A stretch of 64,000 nt of DNA, taken from contig CBDCTK010000002.1 in assembly GCA_965222225.1 (NCBI GenBank), positions 4,128,001-4,192,000 on the forward strand, given 5' to 3'. Below, one piece after another: positions 8,601 through 20,426 of this stretch. The position numbers and the translations under genes are program-made. A model generated the notes under the pieces. That model did no database searches, was not told where the DNA came from, and saw nothing but the letters and a program-made list of their open reading frames with translations. Positions within the stretch are counted from its first letter, which is position 1; each line of letters starts with the position of its first letter. The DNA comes from Candidatus Poribacteria bacterium (lineage in GTDB: Bacteria > Poribacteria > WGA-4E > JAJDTR01).

Positions 8601-9008
8601 TCACACAAAGATAGATAAGGCAATCTTCTGATACCGACGGAAGACCTCTGGGTTGGTCAAAGCAGTCCATAACTTCATGGCATTGTCCACCATCTCAAGT
8701 TTCTTGGATACTATTTTGGTGCGGCGTGTGAATCGTCCAAGATGATGGCGTGTATTGCTGTTATCACGTTCGACTGTTGCTGTCCCTGATTTCCCGATGT
8801 GATGACGCTCCGCAGGAAGTACCTTGGCAAACGCTTCCCAATTGTCAGTGTAATACTGGCAATCACTTAAGTGTTTCACTTTGTCGAATAGCCGTCTGAA
8901 GGTATCAGCATCACGACCACCGATAACCCAGGCAACGGTTTTGCCTGTTTCACGAGAAACTGCTTTGTGAATCCATCTTTTGTTTTTTTTGACCCGATAA
9001 AATGCCAC
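8601..9008 (-). CDS. insB: IS1 InsB (DDE part), joined to InsA by a -1 frameshift
   Basis: YYTDNW...VERDNSNTRHHLGRF.R.TK. A slippery A8C run at 8982-8990 fuses ...HFIGSKK to NKRWIHKAV. Confidence 0.85.
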   Translation of the reverse strand: MAFYRVKKNKRWIHKAVSRETGKTVAWVIGGRDADTFRRLFDKVKHLSDCQYYTDNWEAFAKVLPAERHHIGKSGTATVERDNSNTRHHLGRFTRRTKIVSKKLEMVDNAMKLWTALTNPEVFRRYQKIALSIFV

Positions 9009-9319
9009 ATCTCATCAAATTCCAATTCACGGGTATTGATTGGAATCTCAGGCTCCGACAACAGGGCTGCTTCCTTTGCAGGCCATTTTTGAACAGTACT
9101 TGGCGATACATTAAACAAGTTGGCAATAGTGCCGTAAGACGCTTTTGCAAGCGAGTAGAGAATTACTGCAAAAGCACGCTTGATGGTGGTTTGAGGGTTG
9201 GTTCTCTCGTCTCCCTCAACGAAATTATAACCGCACGTTTTACAACGGTATCGCTGTTTGGAACGAACGAATCCGTTTTTCGTGACTTCCGAACTTTGAC
9301 AGTTCTTACAGTTTGACAT
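8876..9319 (-). CDS. insA: IS1 InsA (zinc ribbon + HTH), N-terminal part of the transposase
   Basis: CKNC...KNG...KQRYRCKTCG, an HTH (IANLFNVSPSTVQKW), and EFDEMW. Confidence 0.88.
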   Translation of the reverse strand: MSNCKNCQSSEVTKNGFVRSKQRYRCKTCGYNFVEGDERTNPQTTIKRAFAVILYSLAKASYGTIANLFNVSPSTVQKWPAKEAALLSEPEIPINTRELEFDEMWHFIGSKKTKDGFTKQFLVKQAKPLPGLSVVVMLIPSDGYSTK

Positions 9320-12246: not shown

Positions 12247-13353
12247 ATGCCAATGGAAATGAAATTTAACGTCGGAATTGTCGGAGCCCGTCGAGGCACT
12301 GGGCACATTCTACCGTTTAGCACGATTACTGAAACGGAGGTGGCTGCGCTCTGTGATTTGAATGAGGAAACACTTCACACCGTCGCGACAGCGCACGGCA
12401 TAGCCAAACAATTCACGGACTATGAGAAGCTACTTGAGGACGACGATATACAGATTGTGGTGTTGGCGACTCCCGAAAATCTCCACGTCCCACAGACCAT
12501 CGCGGCGTTAAACGCGGGAAAGCATGTAATCAGTGAAGTAACGGCAGCGGTATCGCTCGATCAGTGTGCGGAATTGGTTCGGGCGGTCAGACAGAGCCGC
12601 ACGAAATATATGATGGCTGAGAATTACTGCTACCTCAAATCAAATGTGTTGATTGGCAACATGGTGCGGCAGGGGATGTTCGGGGAAATATATTTTGGCG
12701 AAGGGGAATACCTCCATAGTATCAAATCGCTTCATCACGATAGCGAAGGCAATCCAACGTGGCGCTACTACTGGCAAGTGGGCGTGAATCGTTGTAACTA
12801 CGCGACACACCACCTCGGTCCTGTGCTGCAATGGTTTAACGAACGGGTCGTAAGCGTTTGTTGCTTGGGAACCGGTGTGCACACCGACCCTGAACACACA
12901 ATGGAAGATACAGTGATGATGCTATGCAAGACGGATAGCGGCGCACTCATTAAGATCCGAGTAGATATGTTATCCAACCGTCCTGCCAACTCGTACTACA
13001 GTCTTCAAGGCACAAAAGGCTGTTATGAAGGCACACGGGGCCTTGGAGATCAGCCGAAAATTTGGTTAGAAGAGTCAGGTCGTGGTGATGAGTGGATGCC
13101 GCTTTCAGCGGTTGAGGAAGAATTCCTGCCCGAGCGATGGAAAAACCCGCCTCAAGAAGCCGCACATCTAACCGATGGACTCGGCGATTACTTCGAGCTA
13201 CGGGACTTTGTGGATTGCATCCTCAAGGACACTGAACCGCCGCTGGATGTCTATACGGCGCTGGATTTTACGGTTCCGGGCTTGGTCTCTGAGCAGTCGA
13301 TTGCCAATGGTGGCGCTCCGGTTGAAGTTCCTGACTTCCGAAACATGGACTGA
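12247..13353 (+). CDS. Gfo/Idh/MocA-family oxidoreductase
   Basis: VGIVGA Rossmann start, LATPENLH, GKHVISEV and MMAENYCY. Exact start uncertain. Confidence 0.88.
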   Translation: MPMEMKFNVGIVGARRGTGHILPFSTITETEVAALCDLNEETLHTVATAHGIAKQFTDYEKLLEDDDIQIVVLATPENLHVPQTIAALNAGKHVISEVTAAVSLDQCAELVRAVRQSRTKYMMAENYCYLKSNVLIGNMVRQGMFGEIYFGEGEYLHSIKSLHHDSEGNPTWRYYWQVGVNRCNYATHHLGPVLQWFNERVVSVCCLGTGVHTDPEHTMEDTVMMLCKTDSGALIKIRVDMLSNRPANSYYSLQGTKGCYEGTRGLGDQPKIWLEESGRGDEWMPLSAVEEEFLPERWKNPPQEAAHLTDGLGDYFELRDFVDCILKDTEPPLDVYTALDFTVPGLVSEQSIANGGAPVEVPDFRNMD

Positions 13354-13640
13354 CTTCAGCCGGAGCCCATTCATGGTAGTCGTATTTGATATTCAGAGTT
13401 CCTACCCATAAAGGTGGCCTATCGCCCACCATGTCTATTAAGGCACGCTTCAGACGGCAAAACACACGGATTTAAACCAGGAATCCGAGACAACAAAACC
13501 GTTTGTTCACTGACGAAAGTATGGAAATGAATCTCCACGAAATGAAATGCAAAGCCCTGCGGGAAGAAATGAAAAGGCGTGGACTGAAGGGATATTAATC
13601 GTTAAATAAAGCCCAACTCATCCAATATATTTCAACCGGC

Positions 13641-14510
13641 GTGCACCCGATTCGGCACGTTGCCGAATCTAGTGTGCGGTCGAATAAAAAGGTACAGACA
13701 GTTATTCCAAGAGTTGAGAATCATTCACCTATATCTCCGGCAGCCACGCAGAATGGTTTTCCCATAAACCAAATCTTAGCCGGTGATTGTCTAAATGTAC
13801 TTCCTTCCCTTGCTAGCAATGTTTTTGATTGTTGTATCGCCGATCCCCCGTTCAATATGTCACAAAAAAAAGGATTGGGCTGGGCGTTCAGTTCCCATAT
13901 TACGATGCAGGAAGGGTGGGATATCTTCTCAAAAGACGAATATTCCCAGTTCACACTCGATTGGGTCTCCGAGGTTCTGAGAGTCGTCAAGCCGAACGGG
14001 AATATCTTTGTTTTCGGATCGTTTCACAGTATTTTTACGTTAGGATTTATCCTTCAGAACATATTTGATCGGCGCATTATCACCCAGATTGTATGGTATA
14101 AGCCGAATGCACAGCCCAATATCACCTGTCGCATGTTTACGGAATCAACTGAATTCATTATTTGGGCAGTTAACAATGAGCGTAAAAAGGCAAAAAACTG
14201 GACATTCAATTATCATGAGATGAAGGCGATGAATAATAACAAACAGATGCGAAACATGTGGGAAATCCCGCTGACGAAGCCGTCTGAACGAAAATACGGA
14301 AAACATCCTTCACAGAAACCGCTAGCAGTGGTTGAACGGCTAATTTTGGCGGGCACGAACGAAGACGACCTGATTCTAGATCCGTTTTCCGGAACCGGAA
14401 CAACCGGAATTGGTGCACAAAAGAACAATCGAAAATGGGTGATGATTGAGAAAGAAGAATTCTATAATCAGATTGCTCGACGGCGACTTGAAGAGTTAGC
14501 CGGCGAATAA
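13641..14510 (+). CDS. Beta-class N6-adenine/N4-cytosine DNA methyltransferase (DpnA/HinfI-like)
   Basis: Motif IV DPPF is N-terminal, followed by HPSQKP and motif I LDPFSGTGTT. An in-frame upstream extension from ATG 13521 is broken by TAA at 13596. Confidence 0.9.
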   Translation: MHPIRHVAESSVRSNKKVQTVIPRVENHSPISPAATQNGFPINQILAGDCLNVLPSLASNVFDCCIADPPFNMSQKKGLGWAFSSHITMQEGWDIFSKDEYSQFTLDWVSEVLRVVKPNGNIFVFGSFHSIFTLGFILQNIFDRRIITQIVWYKPNAQPNITCRMFTESTEFIIWAVNNERKKAKNWTFNYHEMKAMNNNKQMRNMWEIPLTKPSERKYGKHPSQKPLAVVERLILAGTNEDDLILDPFSGTGTTGIGAQKNNRKWVMIEKEEFYNQIARRRLEELAGE

Positions 14511-14537
14511 TGAGTGTTCATTATAGAGGAGTTTGAC

Positions 14538-15149
14538 ATGCAAAGGCAGGAAGCACTCTCGAAACTGTCAGAGCTTATCAACCAAGACCTGCGTTTTCTT
14601 GCGAATCAATATGAAGTAACGGTTTTCAAGGGAGACAAACCAAATAAGGGTTGGGCATGGCACGTTCTTGAGCGTCATCTTAACTTACCAATCAACTCTG
14701 CTCAAGCACCAAACTTTGGTTCTTGGGAATTGAAGGTAGTTCCTCCGAAGTATCTAAAAAGTGGAAAGTTGACAATCAAGGAAACAATGGCAATTACGAT
14801 GATTGATGCCTACAATGTTGAACATACCGATTTCCAAGATAGCCATCTGTTCACCAAACTCAGGAAACTAATAGTTGCTGCCAGAATCTGGGAGAGTCAG
14901 CAGGAAGAACGATCTGTGCTTCATATTGTGACAACCTTTGACCTTGACAATCCCAAGATATACAGTCAAATTAAAGCGGATTATGATTTAGTCAGAGAGA
15001 CAATCCGCACGAAAGGTTTTTCGGCTTTGACCGGAAAAATGGGGGTATATATTCAACCAAGGACAAAGGGGCCTGGACATGGTAGTATGTCACGAGCGTT
15101 TTACGCAAGAACCACCTTCCTTAAGCAGTTCATTTTTCCGTCGCTTTGA
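14538..15149 (+). CDS. MutH/Sau3AI/MvaI-like restriction endonuclease
   Basis: NKGW...LERHL..PINS..APNFGSWELK (PD-(D/E)xK-like) and C-terminal YIQPRTKG.GH...RAFYA. ATG 14538 follows GAGGAG. Confidence 0.8.
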   Translation: MQRQEALSKLSELINQDLRFLANQYEVTVFKGDKPNKGWAWHVLERHLNLPINSAQAPNFGSWELKVVPPKYLKSGKLTIKETMAITMIDAYNVEHTDFQDSHLFTKLRKLIVAARIWESQQEERSVLHIVTTFDLDNPKIYSQIKADYDLVRETIRTKGFSALTGKMGVYIQPRTKGPGHGSMSRAFYARTTFLKQFIFPSL

Positions 15150-15263
15150 AGACATAAAATCCGCGCAAAAACAGATGCGTTGAATTGACAATTAGAACAT
15201 ATTCCGTTTTGAATCACGAGGAATCGCCAACCCTACCAACAGACCGGCGACAAACACTGTACG

Positions 15264-17222
15264 ATGGACACAAAACCAACCTTCCAGACCATTACCCAGA
15301 GTAAAACTTCAACTCCAGTAGATCCTGTAGTAGCGGCGGAGGTTGGTCTAGAGAGGGGCAAAATCGGCAAACTGCATCTGGAGCGGAATGGCGCAGCCAT
15401 CCCACCCTTGTCAACACCGATTTTGTACCCCGTAGTTTCATTCATGACCGGTTCGACGCCGCGCGGCGGGGGTTTGTGGAAGTACCTACTTCGAGATTTC
15501 ATGAAGAACGATGTGCCGATGTTGTCGCAAGTCCTGCACTTTCTGGATTTCCCTATCAACGGTAAGAGTTTGGCGAAATGGCGAAGTAAAACCGTTCGTG
15601 AGTGGTATCGTGAGGTCAATGGACCATACGAAGCGCCGCTCCTGCTCGATTCCGGCGGATTCAAACTGCTTTATAACACGGGGCTAGATCTCTCTGAGTT
15701 CGGCATTAACGCAGAAACGGAAGCGGATGATATACTCGCACTCCAGGACGACATGGGTGGGGACATGATTGCTTCTCTGGACTACCCGCTTCCACCGGGG
15801 CTGGATCGATCGGAAGCCGAAAGGCGGATGAACCGCAGCCTGAAAAATGCCTTTAGGGTAGCGGAATGCATCGCCGATCGCCGTAACCCGCCATATCTGT
15901 ACATCTGTTGTCATGGACAATCCCGGGTTGACATTGAAGAGTACGTCCAGAAGGTTTTTGACAGGCTTCTGGGAGTCTTACCATCGTTTGGACTTGCGGT
16001 TGGCTCTCTCGTACCGCTGCGAGGAAAAAAGGATTCGGAAGTATTGGAGCGGATATTGGGAGTGGTAAACGGAATACCGGAATCGGAGCGACATCGGACG
16101 CCGATTCACGCCTTCGGCGTTTCAGGTGAACTTGCCCCCATACTCGCTTACATGGGAATTGATAGCTTTGACAGCACAAGTTACATTCAAGCTGCTCGCG
16201 GCCTCAACTATTCCCATCCCGAAACGCGGCGGAAGCAGAAAATTATGGAGTTAGACGAAACGGTGTGCACTTGCCGCATCTGCCGCGAGGTGTCGCTTGA
16301 TGAAATGCACCTTGCCCTGTCGGATGCAGTAAGTTATAGGAAGACTTCAACCGGGAAGTACAAGAGCGAATACTATGCCGCCATCGCTTTGCACAACTTT
16401 GAGATGGAAGCGGGGTTACTTTCCCGTATGAAAGAAGCTATTGAGAGCGAAGACTCGCTTGAAGAGTTGGTTCGTCACGCGCAGGTAGGACGAGGCATCA
16501 ATAGAGCAGTAGGCTGGCTGCTTGAGAATGATGAGATTTTTGCCAGTAAGATGGCGAAAACTGTCTTTGAGGCCACCGATTCACGGGGCAAATCCGCCCT
16601 TCCAATTGGGCGGAATCCGTATCAACTCGAACTCTTCACGGGATCCTTGACAGCGGAAGGAAATGGCGAGGAATCGCGATCAATCTCGCTCAATTATACA
16701 CCTGATTCCTTTTCCATTCCCGATGATTATGCTCCCCCTAAGGACAAAGACGTACTGCTGGTTATTCCGTGTGCCGGGAAAAAGCCGTATTCACTGTCGC
16801 GCACACACGCTATTGTCAATACCAAACTTCAGACGGCCTTCGGTGAAGCGGGAACTTCCATCCACAGAATTACCCTTTCGGGACTTTACGGACCCGTGCC
16901 GGAGGAATATGAATCTGAAGAAGCTGTCCTCCGATACGATTTTCAGTTGTCACCGAGAAATACCGCGAAAATACAGCTCGGTGCGGATCGGCTCTGCGCC
17001 TATCTGGAGAAGTATGCCAATCACTACAAGCTGATTGTCGGATACGCGACAAGCCAAGCTTATCGCAAAGTGTTTGAACTCACCCGATCCAGACGGTCAG
17101 ACTTTGTTTTGCTGCCGACGAAACCGAAACAGAATCGACTCACCGAGTTTTTCCGGCACGTTCACCTTGATGAACTCGTTGAGGTTTTGTCAACTGTAGC
17201 GCAACCACTGAGCAAAGAATAA
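15264..17222 (+). CDS. tRNA-guanine transglycosylase-fold protein fused to a DUF5591 (ArcS/YaaA-like) domain
   Basis: TGT motifs LLDSGGF, LDYP, AVGSLV, HAFG, DSFDS and the Zn site CTCRIC...HN. C-terminal VIPCAGKKPYSLSRTH...LSGLYGPVPEE...YDF. Confidence 0.82.
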   Translation: MDTKPTFQTITQSKTSTPVDPVVAAEVGLERGKIGKLHLERNGAAIPPLSTPILYPVVSFMTGSTPRGGGLWKYLLRDFMKNDVPMLSQVLHFLDFPINGKSLAKWRSKTVREWYREVNGPYEAPLLLDSGGFKLLYNTGLDLSEFGINAETEADDILALQDDMGGDMIASLDYPLPPGLDRSEAERRMNRSLKNAFRVAECIADRRNPPYLYICCHGQSRVDIEEYVQKVFDRLLGVLPSFGLAVGSLVPLRGKKDSEVLERILGVVNGIPESERHRTPIHAFGVSGELAPILAYMGIDSFDSTSYIQAARGLNYSHPETRRKQKIMELDETVCTCRICREVSLDEMHLALSDAVSYRKTSTGKYKSEYYAAIALHNFEMEAGLLSRMKEAIESEDSLEELVRHAQVGRGINRAVGWLLENDEIFASKMAKTVFEATDSRGKSALPIGRNPYQLELFTGSLTAEGNGEESRSISLNYTPDSFSIPDDYAPPKDKDVLLVIPCAGKKPYSLSRTHAIVNTKLQTAFGEAGTSIHRITLSGLYGPVPEEYESEEAVLRYDFQLSPRNTAKIQLGADRLCAYLEKYANHYKLIVGYATSQAYRKVFELTRSRRSDFVLLPTKPKQNRLTEFFRHVHLDELVEVLSTVAQPLSKE

Positions 17223-17228
17223 GTTGAT

Positions 17229-17723
17229 ATGTACCAATATCGAATGGCGAAAACAGACGATTTGAAGCGAATTGTGGAAATCGAGATGCGATCGGAGATC
17301 CAATCCAATCCATCTTGTCGAGAGAAGCATCAGATTGGCTTCGATACTCGCTACCGTTGGTGGACCGATTATTTTAATCGCACCAGCCACACCGAAACGA
17401 TCAGTGTTCATCGGACGATATACGTTGCTATGATTAAGCTGAATATTGTCGGATACATCGCCGGACATCTGACCTCTCAACCCGATCCGCAAGGCGAGAT
17501 TCAGTCGATGAACGTCCTGAAACCGCAGTGGGGAAAAGGAGCGGGAGTAAACCTGCTTAGGAATCTGGCAAGGTGGTTCAAGAAGCAAGGCGTCGCGTCC
17601 GTCTGTGTGCATGTGCCAGAGCATAGCCCATATAAGGAATTCTATGCCCAACACGGTGCTACGGCTGTGAATGACTCCCTTTGTCGGTGGGATAACATCG
17701 GCGAGGTGACAGAAGAATCGTAA
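17229..17723 (+). CDS. GNAT-family N-acetyltransferase
   Basis: IVGYIAG...GEIQSMNV...QWGKGAGVNLL (motif A) ...FYAQHGA. Confidence 0.8.
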   Translation: MYQYRMAKTDDLKRIVEIEMRSEIQSNPSCREKHQIGFDTRYRWWTDYFNRTSHTETISVHRTIYVAMIKLNIVGYIAGHLTSQPDPQGEIQSMNVLKPQWGKGAGVNLLRNLARWFKKQGVASVCVHVPEHSPYKEFYAQHGATAVNDSLCRWDNIGEVTEES

Positions 17724-17739
17724 CACCCATAACGAGATA

Positions 17740-18798
17740 ATGAGTAGCCCTTGGTTAATCTCTCAAAAAGCCGATCTAAGCTTTTTTTTCTTGCCCCTAA
17801 TCGTTATTTGGGTGGTAATATTCCTGTTGCCGTCTTCCGTCCTTGACCACGATTTGCCCTTGTGGGCATGGGCAGTATTCATCCTGGGATTTGATGTAAG
17901 CCATGTTTGGAGCACGTTGTTCCGAACCTACATCGACAAGGATGAAACCGAGAGGTTGGGACGAAAGGCGTGGTCGATCCCGCTCCTCTCTTTTCTTGCC
18001 GTTTTCGTCGTATGCTCATTGTCGATTGACGTGTTTTGGCGATTATTGGCATATCTCGCTGTTTCTCATTTCGCGAAACAGCAGTTCGGTTTTCTCGCTC
18101 TTTACCGAATCAGACAGGGAAGAATTAGCAAACGTATTCCGGACAAACTAGCAATTTACCTAGCGGTTCTTTATCCTGTCGTCTACTGGCATTTGGCTCA
18201 AGACAGGTCATTTGAATGGTTTGTGTCGGGCGATTTCGTGTTTCTTAAGCACTTCCAACTACCGCATCAAAAACTAATCATTACCAATGTATTGTACTGG
18301 ACGATCTTGGCAGGTTGGTTAATAGAGGAATGCATTACTTCTGTCAAACAGGTCGGCAAGATAGCTTATGGCAAAATCGCTTGGGTATTGGTCACCGCGT
18401 TCAACTGGTATTTCGGGATTGTACACTTCAACTCCGACATTGTTTTCTCCGTTACCAACGTAGTTGCGCACGGTCTACCGTATATGACATTGGTTGTTTG
18501 GTATAACATAAGGAAAAACGCGAGTTTGAATCAATCTGTGCCGATATTCCAAATGATTTTCACCGTTGTATTTGGAGCTATATTGTTGGCATATATTGAG
18601 GAGTTTGGCTGGGATATGCTGCTATTTAGAGAGAGAGGCGAGTTATTTCCGGCTTATTTCATCGGTCTCTTTGAAGGTTCACTGGCGATTGCTTTTGCGT
18701 ATGCGCTACTGGCTTTGCCACAAATCACTCATTACATTCTTGATGGAATCATCTGGAAAAACAGCGCATCAAATCCTCACGTGAAACAGATGCTGTAG
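17740..18798 (+). CDS. Multi-pass membrane protein with conserved His motifs
   Basis: About 9-10 hydrophobic segments, with DVSHVWST, HFAKQQFG, AHGLPY and THYILDG.IW. Confidence 0.75.
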   Translation: MSSPWLISQKADLSFFFLPLIVIWVVIFLLPSSVLDHDLPLWAWAVFILGFDVSHVWSTLFRTYIDKDETERLGRKAWSIPLLSFLAVFVVCSLSIDVFWRLLAYLAVSHFAKQQFGFLALYRIRQGRISKRIPDKLAIYLAVLYPVVYWHLAQDRSFEWFVSGDFVFLKHFQLPHQKLIITNVLYWTILAGWLIEECITSVKQVGKIAYGKIAWVLVTAFNWYFGIVHFNSDIVFSVTNVVAHGLPYMTLVVWYNIRKNASLNQSVPIFQMIFTVVFGAILLAYIEEFGWDMLLFRERGELFPAYFIGLFEGSLAIAFAYALLALPQITHYILDGIIWKNSASNPHVKQML

Positions 18799-18826
18799 GC
18801 CGGTGCGAAGGAGAAAGAAGCACATT

Positions 18827-19549
18827 ATGGAGTTGTACCCGATTCGCCACGGTCAGTCGACCAACAACCGTGGAGATGCGCGTGTCTCTGATCCATCGCT
18901 GACGGAGCTCGGGAGGCAGCAAGCGACCAGAGCAGGACTGGCGCTGAGAAACCTGGGTATCACGCGCCTTTAATGTAGTGCGATGCTTCGTGCGGTGCAA
19001 ACCGCCACAATTGTTGGAGAACACTTGGGACATGCCCCGCATGTTTTCGTGGGAATTCACGAGTGGGGCGGCGTTTGGGAAGATCGGGTTGATGGTGGTA
19101 TGGATCAACTGCCGGGACTAACACGATCGCAGTTGCGCGATGCCTGTCCGACAGCCGTGTTGCCAGATGATGTAACGGACGAAGGTTGGTGCATTCAAGC
19201 ATTCGACGCCCACGAACTAGCGTACGGAGGGAACGATGAACAAATGCTGGGCTTGGCACACGAAAATTGCCTTCGATTCATCGCCCACTTGGACCACCAC
19301 CACCACGCAAGAGAACATGAAAAGGTCGGGGCAATTTTGCACGGTGGATCCGGATCAATGCTGCTCGGTGCATTTTTTGGTTTGCTACCAAATGAAACTC
19401 AAAATCGCTTCCCGCACAACAACGCCGGAATCACGAAAATTATTAGAACTCCGAAGTATACCCAGTTGCTTTATCAAAACCAGACCAGCCATCTATTGAA
19501 AGAGAGTGAATTCGACCTAGAAGCCAGTTCTCCCATGGTAATTTGGTGA
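18827..19549 (+). pseudogene. Histidine phosphatase (PGM-like) copy 1, with a premature stop
   Basis: ATG 18827 gives MELYPIRHGQ. In-frame TAA at 18971-18973 where the paralog at 19704 has TAT. Confidence 0.88.
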
Positions 19550-19703: not shown

Positions 19704-20426
19704 ATGGAATTGTACCTAATTCGCCACGGTCAGTCGACCAACAACCGTGGAGATGCGCGTGTTCCTGAGACACCGCTGACAGAGATCGGAAAGCAGCAAG
19801 CGGACAGATCGGGACGGGCGTTGAAGAACTTGGGTGTCACGCGCCTTTATTTCAGCGCGATGCTCCGTGCGGTGCAAACCGCCACAATTGTTGGAGAACA
19901 CTTGGGACATGCCCCGCATGTATTCGTGGGAATTCACGAGTGGGGCGGCCTTTGGGAAGATCGGGTTGATGGTGGTATGGATCAGCTACCGGGACTAACA
20001 CGATCGCAGTTGCGCGATCTCTGTCCAAAAGTGGTGTTACCAAATGATGTGACAGACAACGGTTGGTGGTTTCCATCGTCTGTCAATGATAAACCGGTAT
20101 CGGCATGGGACTATGCGCAGATGCTCCAATTGATTCACAGAAACTGCCGTGGGTTCATCGCGCATTTGGAGCAACACCACGGTGGGGAAGCTGAGAAGAT
20201 CGGAGCAATTATACACGGAGGCTCCGGCTCAATCCTAATCGGAGCCCTGCTAGGGATGCCACTGCCAAACGAATTTCCAGAGCGCTTCCCACACAATAAC
20301 ACCGGCATCACGAAAATTCGAAGAACCCACGAGCACACACAGTTACTGTATCATAACCAAACCGGTCATCTACTGAAGAATTGTGAGTTCAGTCAAGAAG
20401 CTAGCTCCCCATTACTAACATGGTGA
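19704..20426 (+). CDS. Histidine phosphatase family protein, copy 2
   Basis: LIRHGQ, LT.IG.QQA, S.MLRA.QTA and IHGG. Confidence 0.9.
   Translation: MELYLIRHGQSTNNRGDARVPETPLTEIGKQQADRSGRALKNLGVTRLYFSAMLRAVQTATIVGEHLGHAPHVFVGIHEWGGLWEDRVDGGMDQLPGLTRSQLRDLCPKVVLPNDVTDNGWWFPSSVNDKPVSAWDYAQMLQLIHRNCRGFIAHLEQHHGGEAEKIGAIIHGGSGSILIGALLGMPLPNEFPERFPHNNTGITKIRRTHEHTQLLYHNQTGHLLKNCEFSQEASSPLLTW

Follow-up and report, generated by a model that had tools for sequence, protein, structure and literature searches.

A PUA-less TGT–DUF5591 protein beside a type II restriction-modification pair in Poribacteria: a candidate single-chain writer of 7-deazaguanine marks in DNA

The window analyzed here, a 64,000-nucleotide stretch of DNA (G000:C2:4128001-4192000), comes from a sponge symbiont of the Poribacteria. 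It contains three open reading frames (ORFs) that lie side by side on the plus strand at 13641-14510, 14514-15149, and 15264-17222 (ORF list). We found that the first two form, as judged from their sequences, an autonomous type II restriction-modification (R-M) pair, while the third, hereafter TD, appears to join a TGT-type transglycosylase to a DUF5591 domain. We propose that the R-M pair adjoins a self-contained enzyme that would put 7-cyano-7-deazaguanine (preQ0) into DNA and then convert it, a picture to which we give an even chance. A first-pass annotation of the same DNA had described three adjacent co-oriented genes, and both the ORF coordinates and Pfam agreed; the start given there, 13521, lies 120 nucleotides upstream of the ORF start used here (13641). 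The genes and the parts of TD are as follows.

13641..14510, plus strand: gene 1, methyltransferase (MT), 289 amino acids; beta-class N6-adenine/N4-cytosine DNA methyltransferase
14514..15149, plus strand: gene 2, nuclease, 211 amino acids; MutH/Sau3AI/MvaI-BcnI family; 3-nucleotide gap after the methylase stop
15264..17222, plus strand: gene 3, TD, 652 amino acids; TGT and DUF5591; 114-nucleotide gap after gene 2
15264..16574, plus strand: TD residues 1-437, predicted arcTGT-like transglycosylase domain (TIM barrel) with a Zn site
16575..16667, plus strand: TD residues 438-468, predicted disordered interdomain linker; predicted local distance difference test score (pLDDT) <50
16668..17222, plus strand: TD residues 469-652 and the stop codon, DUF5591 (ArcS C1-type) domain

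Pfam placed a TGT domain (PF01702) at residues 123-405 of TD (3.7e-16) and DUF5591 (PF17884) at residues 487-610 (2.6e-13). The TGT catalytic, Zn, and PC..KKPYS/SGLYG motifs that had been reported as intact were all present in the translation: LLLDSGGF (D129), SLDYPLPP (D173), GIDSFDSTSY (D303), CTCRIC (C335/C337/C340), and ALHNF (H377) in the TGT domain, followed by PCAGKKPYSLSRTH (502-515) and LSGLYGPVP (539-547) in the C-terminal domain. They were also conserved in an alignment of 44 full-length TD homologues reaching down to 29% identity (A1), in which D129, S130, G132, D173, D303, C337, C340, H377, P508, and Y509 were invariant and C335, C503, K507, and S512 were conserved in at least 90% of the members. 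ArcS is described as a TGT-like N-domain followed by C1 (that is, DUF5591, the catalytic core, with the motif PC-X3-KPY-X2-S-X2-H), C2, and PUA (PMC10516641), and the same motif is quoted in PMC5699537. Residues 502-515 of TD match this motif exactly. The protein ends about 40 residues past DUF5591, without the C2/PUA part of ArcS, and Pfam detected TGT in 44/44 and DUF5591 in 43/44 members of A1 and PUA or any other family in 0/44. The fusion itself is less novel than the first-pass annotation had it, as a TGT-like N-domain plus DUF5591 is the architecture of ArcS (PMC10516641); the part that TD lacks is C2/PUA. The TGT plus DUF5591 architecture is already represented in Pfam, and such proteins are annotated as tRNA-guanine transglycosylase.

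We placed TD relative to Tgt, arcTGT, ArcS, and DpdA by hidden Markov model and PDB scores. In NCBIfam, TD scored 77.4 bits against ArcS (NF040592; cut-off 440; 8.6e-22), 76.9 bits against arcTGT (TIGR00432; cut-off 350), 31 bits against bacterial Tgt (TIGR00430; cut-off 306.75), and 17.2 bits against DpdA (NF041059; cut-off 200), thus remaining below every cut-off. The PADLOC model of DpdA (PDLC02807) gave a marginal match (16.2 bits, E 8.7e-4). None of the 44 A1 members reached the ArcS, arcTGT, or Tgt equivalog cut-offs, and all 44 matched ArcS, with a best E of 3.2e-31. Searched as a profile, A1 matched arcTGT (1iq8) at 9.4e-34 and the DpdA in PDB (7ui4) at 1.3e-3, while the C-terminal part of TD matched AF0587 (2q07) at 7.7e-13. 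The alignment with 1iq8 paired the FxDSGGF, LDYP, GSLVP, FDS, CxCxxC, and LHN blocks, and in the base pocket TD has GSLVP where arcTGT has GGVVP. In arcTGT these blocks contain the catalytic Asp residues, the substrate Asp, the residues of the preQ0 pocket, and the Zn ligands. The counterparts of TD D129 and D303 are arcTGT D95 and D249, numbered as in PMC5699537, and we take D130, C279/C281/C284, and H307 to be those of D173, C335/C337/C340, and H377.

The AlphaFold2 model of TD (mean pLDDT 90.6, predicted template modeling score 0.90) consists of two domains joined by the disordered linker 438-468. Its top Foldseek matches in PDB were the arcTGT structures 1j2b and 1iq8 (E 2e-18), and among viral models it matched a TGT-like protein (2.5e-9) and a DUF5591 protein (2.3e-4) of Vibrio phage nt-1, with weaker matches (E about 0.01-0.05) to phage DUF6884 and YaaA proteins. 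The TGT fold, the catalytic Asp, the Zn site, and the lack of PUA, all found in TD by alignment and model, are the features by which DpdA is described as a TGT-fold enzyme without the tRNA-binding PUA (PMC5699537). When the C-terminal domain was compared with DUF6884 proteins encoded next to distant TD relatives, hhalign gave a probability of 89.8% (E 1.8e-6) and paired PCxxxKPY with SCSxTK and LSGLYG with LSAKHG. DUF6884 has the motifs CxxxK and LSAxxG and is a relative of YaaA (PMC11701544); it is cited as a domain of DpdC (PMC12235509). A paralogous subfamily in Poribacteria matched TD over residues ~14-438 and 469-650, leaving out the linker. Together, the profile, fold, and hhalign matches and the published domain make-up of ArcS and DpdC lead us to read TD, on sequence and model grounds, as the fusion of a transglycosylase resembling arcTGT with a nitrile-converting domain of the ArcS/DpdC type, lacking the C2/PUA part that binds tRNA.

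As judged from its homologues, TD represents a distinct family, bacterial and archaeal. A search of 1.84 billion proteins returned 104 clusters at E ≤ 1e-30, mostly of 560-700 amino acids, while a collection of 50,697 phage records contained no TD relative and a scan of viral contigs gave only three weak matches confined to the TGT domain. As a separate observation, the 24th-ranked match in the ESM Atlas (score 0.82) was a group of 57 proteins of ~590 amino acids, auto-named DpdA, in which DUF6884 was found in 72% and TGT in 51%; they are mostly bacterial, with Planctomycetota as the commonest phylum. These proteins may represent a parallel TGT-DpdC fusion, which we mention as a lead only.

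The first-pass annotation had called for a check of the genome for a separate housekeeping tgt and for queCDE, and both are present. A tgt gene at G000:C2:426066-427100 (548.7 bits to PF01702, open frame of 390 amino acids) shows that TD is not the sole tgt, and queC, queE, and queF together with three PTPS/QueD-like matches were found. As had been noted, no que gene falls within the window: the queC, queD, queE, and queF matches all lie outside it. Because G000 has both the housekeeping tgt and queC/D/E/F, TD is an extra paralogue and preQ0 should be available to it. DUF5591 occurs once in G000; among 14 control genomes it was found only in three Euryarchaeota, and in neither one Sulfolobus nor ten bacterial genomes. 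Apart from TD, G000 encodes two standalone DUF6884 (DpdC/YfjM-family) proteins of ~197 amino acids outside the window, at G000:C2:3985828-3986160 (L198) and C2:1240834-1241166 (L199), scoring 47 and 46 bits, above the cut-off. The former lies near a divergent ORF of >318 amino acids containing YIYRGEPEYYDKVSSNLYR, which we take to resemble an FRG domain. A link between these standalone proteins and TD is possible.

Support for a role of the TD family in DNA modification came from the genomic company of its distant relatives. We scanned metagenomes with A1 and examined the best 80 of 234 confirmed loci, which formed 45 clusters when grouped at 80% identity of TD. For gene calling, the longest ORFs were taken greedily; families came from single-linkage BLAST, and one representative of each recurrent neighbor cluster was annotated, with clusters k22, k12, k13, k53, k38, k43, k34, and k33 left out. 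In the survey of neighborhoods suggested by the first-pass annotation, a defense- or DNA-type neighbor lay within four genes of TD in 36/45 clusters, a count that has no matched random-gene baseline, and a preQ0 supply gene (QueC, QueD, QueE, or a YhhQ-type transporter) lay beside TD in 10/45. Eight of the 45 clusters had no such neighbors, and four of those eight contigs were shorter than 4.2 kb. The complete trio of DUF6884, a second TGT, and a GHKL ATPase was present in 13/45 clusters, which is a safer figure than the tally of 18 for the second TGT, as the latter includes pieces of TD (L041, L098) and TD-like paralogues (L057, L058). The following genes were found beside TD relatives.

Second TGT paralogue: ~414 amino acids; arcTGT-like, 115 bits; catalytic positions kept in 33/33
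GHKL ATPase: HATPase_c_3
DUF6884 protein: PADLOC PDC-M57A, 1.5e-10
DEAD-box helicase: PADLOC DpdJ, 2.4e-51, 172.6 bits
PLD-like and GIY-YIG proteins
HerA with NurA: HerA PADLOC 3.6e-35
PglZ-like protein with AAA proteins
GmrSD_N with HEPN: PADLOC NsnA 2.8e-63
Dnd-type restriction helicase: 544 bits, under the 600 cut-off
QueC, QueD, and a radical SAM QueE-like protein
Queuosine-precursor (YhhQ-type) transporter: 144 bits, above the cut-off

Loci L046 and L047 combine TD with a PglZ-like protein, an AAA protein, and a 1,152-amino-acid protein, and L050, L059, and L100 combine it with HerA and a NurA-like protein. TD homologues with 33% identity over 94% of the length were also found on plasmids of the haloarchaea Haladaptatus sp. 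YSMS36 (NZ_CP119784.1) and Natrinema sp. SYSU A 869 (NZ_CP082247.1). On the Haladaptatus plasmid, which belongs to a cultured organism, DUF6884, a 352-amino-acid TGT, an ATP-binding protein, and a 1,493-amino-acid AAA protein are followed by two TD-like genes of 654 and 673 amino acids that face each other (L190, 47138-61065); on the Natrinema plasmid, TD lies amid DEAD/DEAH helicases. The neighborhoods, read from sequence annotation, thus support the idea of DNA 7-deazaguanine modification for the TD family, and the linkage to preQ0 synthesis and import genes fits a preQ0-consuming enzyme.

The suggestion of the first-pass annotation that one protein may both swap a guanine in DNA and derivatize it remains the best-supported mechanism, in view of the TGT paralogy, the intact residues, the ArcS/DpdC-type domain, and the neighbors. 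In this mechanism, preQ0 would be supplied by the cell's own queC/D/E genes, and the TGT domain would exchange guanine in DNA for preQ0 through D303, the presumed nucleophile, and D129. The C-terminal domain would then attack the nitrile of the inserted preQ0 via its Cys503/Lys507 motif, adding an amine or water. The product would be either an amidine, as with ArcS (deoxyarchaeosine, dG+, or else an adduct with lysine), or an amide, as with DpdC (similar to dADG, the 7-amido form of 2'-deoxy-7-deazaguanosine). TD therefore has the make-up of an enzyme that probably writes a 7-deazaguanine mark into DNA, and with its transglycosylase and nitrile-converting domains fused, a single TD chain would do the work of DpdA2 plus ArcS2 of phage nt-1, or of DpdA plus DpdC.

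The phage pair is a close precedent. A C1-only ArcS and DpdA2 of nt-1 yielded dG+ in E. coli plasmid DNA (PMC10516641). Like TD, nt-1 DpdA2 and ArcS2 (a DUF5591-only protein) combine a TGT-type transglycosylase with DUF5591 carrying the ArcS motif and lack PUA, and both halves of the TD model match nt-1 proteins by predicted fold. In contrast, TD is one fused chain, is encoded on a bacterial chromosome, has a TGT half that resembles arcTGT rather than DpdA, and shows no sequence-level match in the 50,697 phage records. With ArcS and arcTGT themselves, TD shares the TGT-like N-domain, the C1/DUF5591 motif, Asp and Zn residues of the arcTGT type, and a preQ0-type pocket that is hydrophobic; it differs by the absence of C2/PUA, by scores far under the equivalog cut-offs, by its bacterial host, and by having no identified RaSEA partner.

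The bacterial Dpd system consists of the DpdA transglycosylase, the DpdB ATPase, the DpdC nitrile hydratase, and the DpdD-K restriction proteins (PMC12235509, PMC12839542, PMC5699537, PMC10164549). The predicted logic of TD is the same, with preQ0 going into DNA before its nitrile is converted, and the C-terminal domain appears homologous to the DpdC-type DUF6884; TD relatives also adjoin DpdJ-like helicases, PLD-like genes, and QueC/D/E. On the other side, TD is not a DpdA by score, its two activities are fused, and the window has no Dpd-type restriction genes. No DpdB was seen at TD, where no search aimed at dpdB was made. A further comparison is with BREX-related capture (BRC; January 2026), which has TGT and GNAT among its components and in which the authors, in the text available, found no DpdB or DpdC homologue; its locus set comprises HerA/FtsK, PglZ, DUF6079, a STAND NTPase, and DUF4007 (PMC12839542). 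As in BRC, TGT homologues of the TD family occur in defense loci with PglZ, AAA ATPases, and HerA, and in the window the gene after TD encodes a GNAT; compared with the published description, L046/L047 and L050/L059/L100 resemble parts of BRC. The window itself contains none of the BRC core genes and is not a BRC locus, and the available description of BRC makes no mention of DUF5591 (PMC12839542).

We also put forward a broader proposal, more tentatively and as a good possibility that falls a little short of an even bet. TD would belong to a class of single-chain writers of 7-deazaguanine in DNA, in which preQ0 is put into chromosomal DNA by a domain derived from arcTGT and turned there into dG+ or an amino-acid amidine by the fused ArcS-type domain. 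This class would be the shared modification module of several Dpd-like defense systems and would occur as an orphan in the R-M hotspots of Poribacteria. The candidate systems would be the haloarchaeal DUF6884-TGT-GHKL-TD module and those that combine TD with a DpdJ-like helicase plus PLD, with HerA/NurA, or with PglZ/BRC.

Several observations weigh against TD as a DNA writer. DNA is the substrate that we infer, and arcTGT, which acts on tRNA, matches TD more closely (9.4e-34) than does DpdA, which acts on DNA (7ui4, 1.3e-3). The Poribacteria loci contain no Dpd-type helicase or nuclease partner of TD, and two clades there, D and E, hold it in conserved, housekeeping-looking synteny. The defense-rich contexts come from relatives that are only 33-52% identical and, because many of these are from similar hypersaline samples, the contexts are not independent of one another. 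The absence of TD relatives from phage records, and the TGT-only nature of the viral matches, point the same way. Salmonella DpdA requires the ATPase DpdB (PMC12839542), and TD here has no ATPase linked to it; without RaSEA, the ArcS of T. kodakarensis shows no activity (PMC11298593). As the same ArcS also takes preQ0 nucleoside and nucleotide in free form (PMC11298593), RNA or small molecules are possible substrates.

Part of this evidence bears on a different reading, in which TD is an RNA enzyme, the bacterial counterpart of arcTGT and ArcS without PUA, placing a base similar to archaeosine in tRNA or some other RNA, with incidental defense genes nearby in other genomes. We consider this unlikely, though far from negligible. 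Its TGT domain is indeed most similar to arcTGT, its C-terminal domain bears the exact ArcS motif, the synteny of clades D and E is stable, and ArcS is reported to take short RNAs, with no need for an L-shaped tRNA (PMC11298593). However, C2/PUA is absent from 44/44 members, and TD is distributed patchily, being found in 54/176 Poribacteria genomes and in 12/65 genomes of one genus and being present or absent at a fixed locus. In addition, the haloarchaeal TD genes sit on plasmids of hosts that should carry arcTGT and ArcS on the chromosome (ArcS of H. volcanii is documented in PMC11298593), and linkage to genes for DpdJ-like helicase, PLD, GHKL, HerA/NurA, PglZ, and GmrSD recurs.

We then consider the R-M pair. 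Gene 1 matched PF01555 (N6_N4_Mtase) at 7e-50 in Pfam and MTase_II at 3.8e-75 in PADLOC; its best NCBIfam match was CcrM-like (224 bits, under the 830 cut-off), and its motif IV reads DPPF. Gene 2 matched PF02976 (MutH) at 1.1e-11 with 44.9 bits against a cut-off of 23, the NCBIfam Sau3AI family at 7.4e-15 but under its cut-off, REase_II in PADLOC at 2e-12, and, as its best PDB match, Sau3AI (4pxg) at 1.1e-5. PADLOC accordingly labels the two genes type II methyltransferase and type II restriction enzyme. Many of the 3,770 relatives of gene 2 found at E ≤ 1e-5 also carry PF15515 (MvaI_BcnI), and one close relative bears the name MvaI/BcnI restriction endonuclease. Gene 2 retains ELK, and in a weak alignment (E 0.21) the residue opposite the first Asp of H. 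influenzae MutH (2aoq), which we take to be the catalytic Asp70 of the E. coli numbering, is Asn in 14/14 orthologues. The arrangement resembles the MvaI/BcnI and Sau3AI/MutH-type systems, in which a small MutH-fold nuclease adjoins a beta-class N6/N4 methyltransferase. Methylase and nuclease recur as an adjacent unit, being paired in 6/15 loci where the methylase adjoins TD (the window included) and in 6/14 loci without TD. Thus, genes 1 and 2 are assigned by sequence as an autonomous type II R-M pair, with gene 2 as the presumed restriction half; the pair is common in Poribacteria and independent of gene 3.

A possible target of the pair was sought in the word usage of G000. GATC, with an observed/expected (O/E) ratio of 0.57, ranked second only to GGCC (0.34) in depletion among 16 four-base palindromes, and CCWGG, also at 0.57, was the lowest of 32 interrupted five-base palindromes, with GGWCC depleted as well (O/E 0.65). 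The target could be GATC or CCWGG, which is only a lead because G000 has many other methylase-like matches, with at least 12 further ones to the window methylase by tblastn. G000 is thus under heavy R-M pressure.

The independence of the pair and TD was established by a survey of 176 genomes of the phylum, in which co-occurrence counts ignore phylogeny. The methylase was found in 63/176 genomes and TD in 54/176, and both occurred in 19, where independence would predict 19.3. In genus g17, 31/40 genomes have the methylase and 0/40 have TD; in genus g18 (n=65), 13 have the methylase and 12 have TD, and none has both against ~2.4 expected by chance, which is suggestive only. In genomes G069 and G070, methylase and TD are on one contig, ~460-690 kb apart.

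We compared the gene neighborhoods of TD, with a 7-kb flank, at 56 places in addition to the window. In genus g1, the order is GFO-[MT-nuclease]-TD-GNAT-membrane protein, with MT-nuclease in three loci including the window, MT alone in L121, MT with a DUF6996/DUF6997 protein in L122, and neither in L124-L126; the slot between GFO and GNAT can thus be empty or hold TD only, MT-TD, or MT-nuclease-TD. In family f2, an amidohydrolase gene is followed by MT, then by the nuclease, another gene, or none, and then by TD and a GFO-like gene, with MT missing from L128 and L138. A third context has MT in L132, L133, and L137 but not in L136. In clade D (55-59% identity), TD stands between a 3-keto-disaccharide hydrolase and an Fe-ADH, without MT. 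Clade E represents a second paralogue; 5/12 of its loci have a QueD-like gene directly upstream of TD, and aminotransferase, cyclophilin, and lysine aminomutase genes are downstream. Overall, MT adjoins TD in 15/22 f1 and f2 loci, which represent at least four different flanking contexts, and in 0/35 other TD places. The gene between MT and TD varies, being MutH-like, DUF6996/DUF6997, small ORFs, or absent. Trees of MT and TD over the 15 MT-TD loci share the same major clades, and these observations suggest that MT and TD came together once, long ago, and were then inherited jointly, with MT lost at least four times.

Conversely, TD stands without the MT-nuclease pair in genomes of the same genus (L124-L126, L128, L136, and L138), and MT-nuclease occurs without TD in 6 of the 14 MT loci sampled in family f4. 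In g18, the orders k12-k13-[MT-nuclease]-k5-k2 (L180-L182) and k12-k13-k5-[TD]-k2 (L146-L159) indicate that MT-nuclease and TD take neighboring variable slots of one region. We conclude that genes 1 and 2 and TD are separate accessory items in one variable hotspot, a small defense islet, and this shared location explains their adjacency.

The first-pass annotation had instead pictured the methylase, the nuclease, and TD as one integrated R-M system, either setting two marks (methyl and 7-deazaguanine) or acting as a base-exchange effector. We regard this as very unlikely. In its favor, most f1 and f2 loci have the methylase immediately upstream of TD, the shared clades of the two trees imply that the pair has long been co-inherited, and a contig from an RNA library bridges the nuclease-TD junction, which is weak support as one contig is not one transcript. 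However, the co-occurrence of methylase and TD equals chance, genera g17 and g18 and the distant placements in G069 and G070 separate them, and each stands alone elsewhere. The MT-TD adjacency is confined to the f1 and f2 lineage and is thus explained by a single ancestral juxtaposition, and a 114-nucleotide gap precedes TD. Among the best 80 of the 234 metagenome loci, 0/80 had a homologue of the window methylase or nuclease within four genes of TD (blastp E ≤ 1e-4, 417 neighbors), and one TD neighbor carries an Eco57I-type methylase domain.

Other candidate partners and events at the locus were examined and rejected. GNAT, a conceivable partner of TD as in BRC, is present in 9/9 other g1 genomes, including the TD-less G020 and G024, the latter with GFO, a 741-nucleotide gap, GNAT, and the membrane gene; it is therefore a backbone gene of g1, kept where TD is absent. 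Horizontal transfer of a methylase-nuclease cassette beside TD had been suggested by partial alignments (~89% identity for the methylase as compared to ~70% for TD), but full-length identities are 72-85% for the methylase and 64-92% for TD, and the trees share clades. The lysine-aminomutase-like radical SAM gene of clade E, considered as a RaSEA analogue, scores 475 bits to lysine 2,3-aminomutase and lies amid housekeeping genes, and we treat it as incidental.

Two side observations concern the same loci. In L122 and L133, a protein of 260-272 amino acids with DUF6996 and DUF6997 (8.9e-47, 2.3e-16) is encoded on the opposite strand between MT and TD, in place of the MutH-like nuclease; it is probably an alternative restriction enzyme for the same methylase. 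TD copies broken by an in-frame TAG or split into two ORFs were found in L142 (G030:C1:1273203-1275075), L143 (G018), and L175 (G151). These copies appear to be decaying, consistent with an accessory gene under loss.

The last alternative, which we hold to have little chance of being right, takes TD as an effector or eraser that, for example, removes 7-deazaguanines from phage DNA and so opens it to restriction, or damages invader nucleic acid, or as a small-molecule enzyme for a preQ0-derived metabolite. The defense-type neighborhoods without an obvious restriction partner of its own in Poribacteria would suit an effector or eraser, as would the haloarchaeal loci, where the second TGT (33/33 intact) and a separate DpdC-like protein already fill the writer role, and ArcS accepts free preQ0 nucleoside and nucleotide (PMC11298593); however, preQ0 synthesis or import genes lie beside TD (10/45 clusters, and QueD upstream in 5/12 clade E loci), an eraser would have no need of a nitrile-converting domain, yet its motif is conserved, and no biosynthetic cluster genes were found among the annotated neighbors.

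In the window, the three genes are accompanied by genes for a GFO oxidoreductase, GNAT, and a membrane protein (Pfam), with the GNAT gene beginning 6 nucleotides past the end of TD. A promoter and terminator scan of 13300-18900 found sites no more numerous than in shuffled sequence. Contigs from RNA libraries (four libraries, two studies; 95-99% identical to the window) span parts of all five genes, with one crossing the nuclease-TD junction and two crossing the TD-GNAT junction; such contigs prove neither transcription, its level, nor a shared transcript, and uncovered stretches carry no meaning. About 4 kb upstream of the R-M pair, at 8601-9319 on the minus strand, lies an insertion sequence-like pair of overlapping ORFs of 147 and 135 amino acids, presumably an IS1-type InsA/InsB transposase split by a frameshift. 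The presence of transposase-like ORFs near the R-M pair fits a variable region. Downstream, at 18983-19549 and 19704-20426 on the plus strand, two tandem paralogues appear from their sequences to be a partial tandem duplication, the 188-amino-acid ORF repeating most of the 240-amino-acid ORF almost letter for letter (MLRAVQTATIVGEHLGHAPHVFVGIHEWGG...) minus its N terminus. We take both to be histidine-phosphatase-type proteins; their cluster, k15, is present in one or two copies in other g1 genomes.

ArcS-type chemistry on DNA (phage nt-1) and a TGT in a defense locus (BRC) are already known, and the DNA 7-deazaguanine systems described in the literature surveyed consist of a DpdA-type transglycosylase and separate helper proteins. 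A search of the literature, with supplementary files outside its scope, found no account of a PUA-less TGT-DUF5591 family as a probable DNA writer, of the DUF6884-TGT-GHKL-TD module, or of a DpdC-like DUF5591 domain in defense loci. For the window, our results part an ordinary R-M pair from an unusual gene, TD, and thereby point experiments at the right unit. If TD is indeed a DNA writer, its arcTGT-derived domain would represent a second, independent route from tRNA to DNA modification, and archaeosine-type bases would be possible in bacterial and archaeal chromosomes and plasmids, with a dG+ or amidine mark being new for bacterial genomic DNA. TD would also offer a single-gene tool for site-specific deazaguanine marking. 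For the family, it would name the modification module of several defense loci, some of them similar to the BRC described in 2026, whose "TGT" is annotated as a tRNA enzyme.

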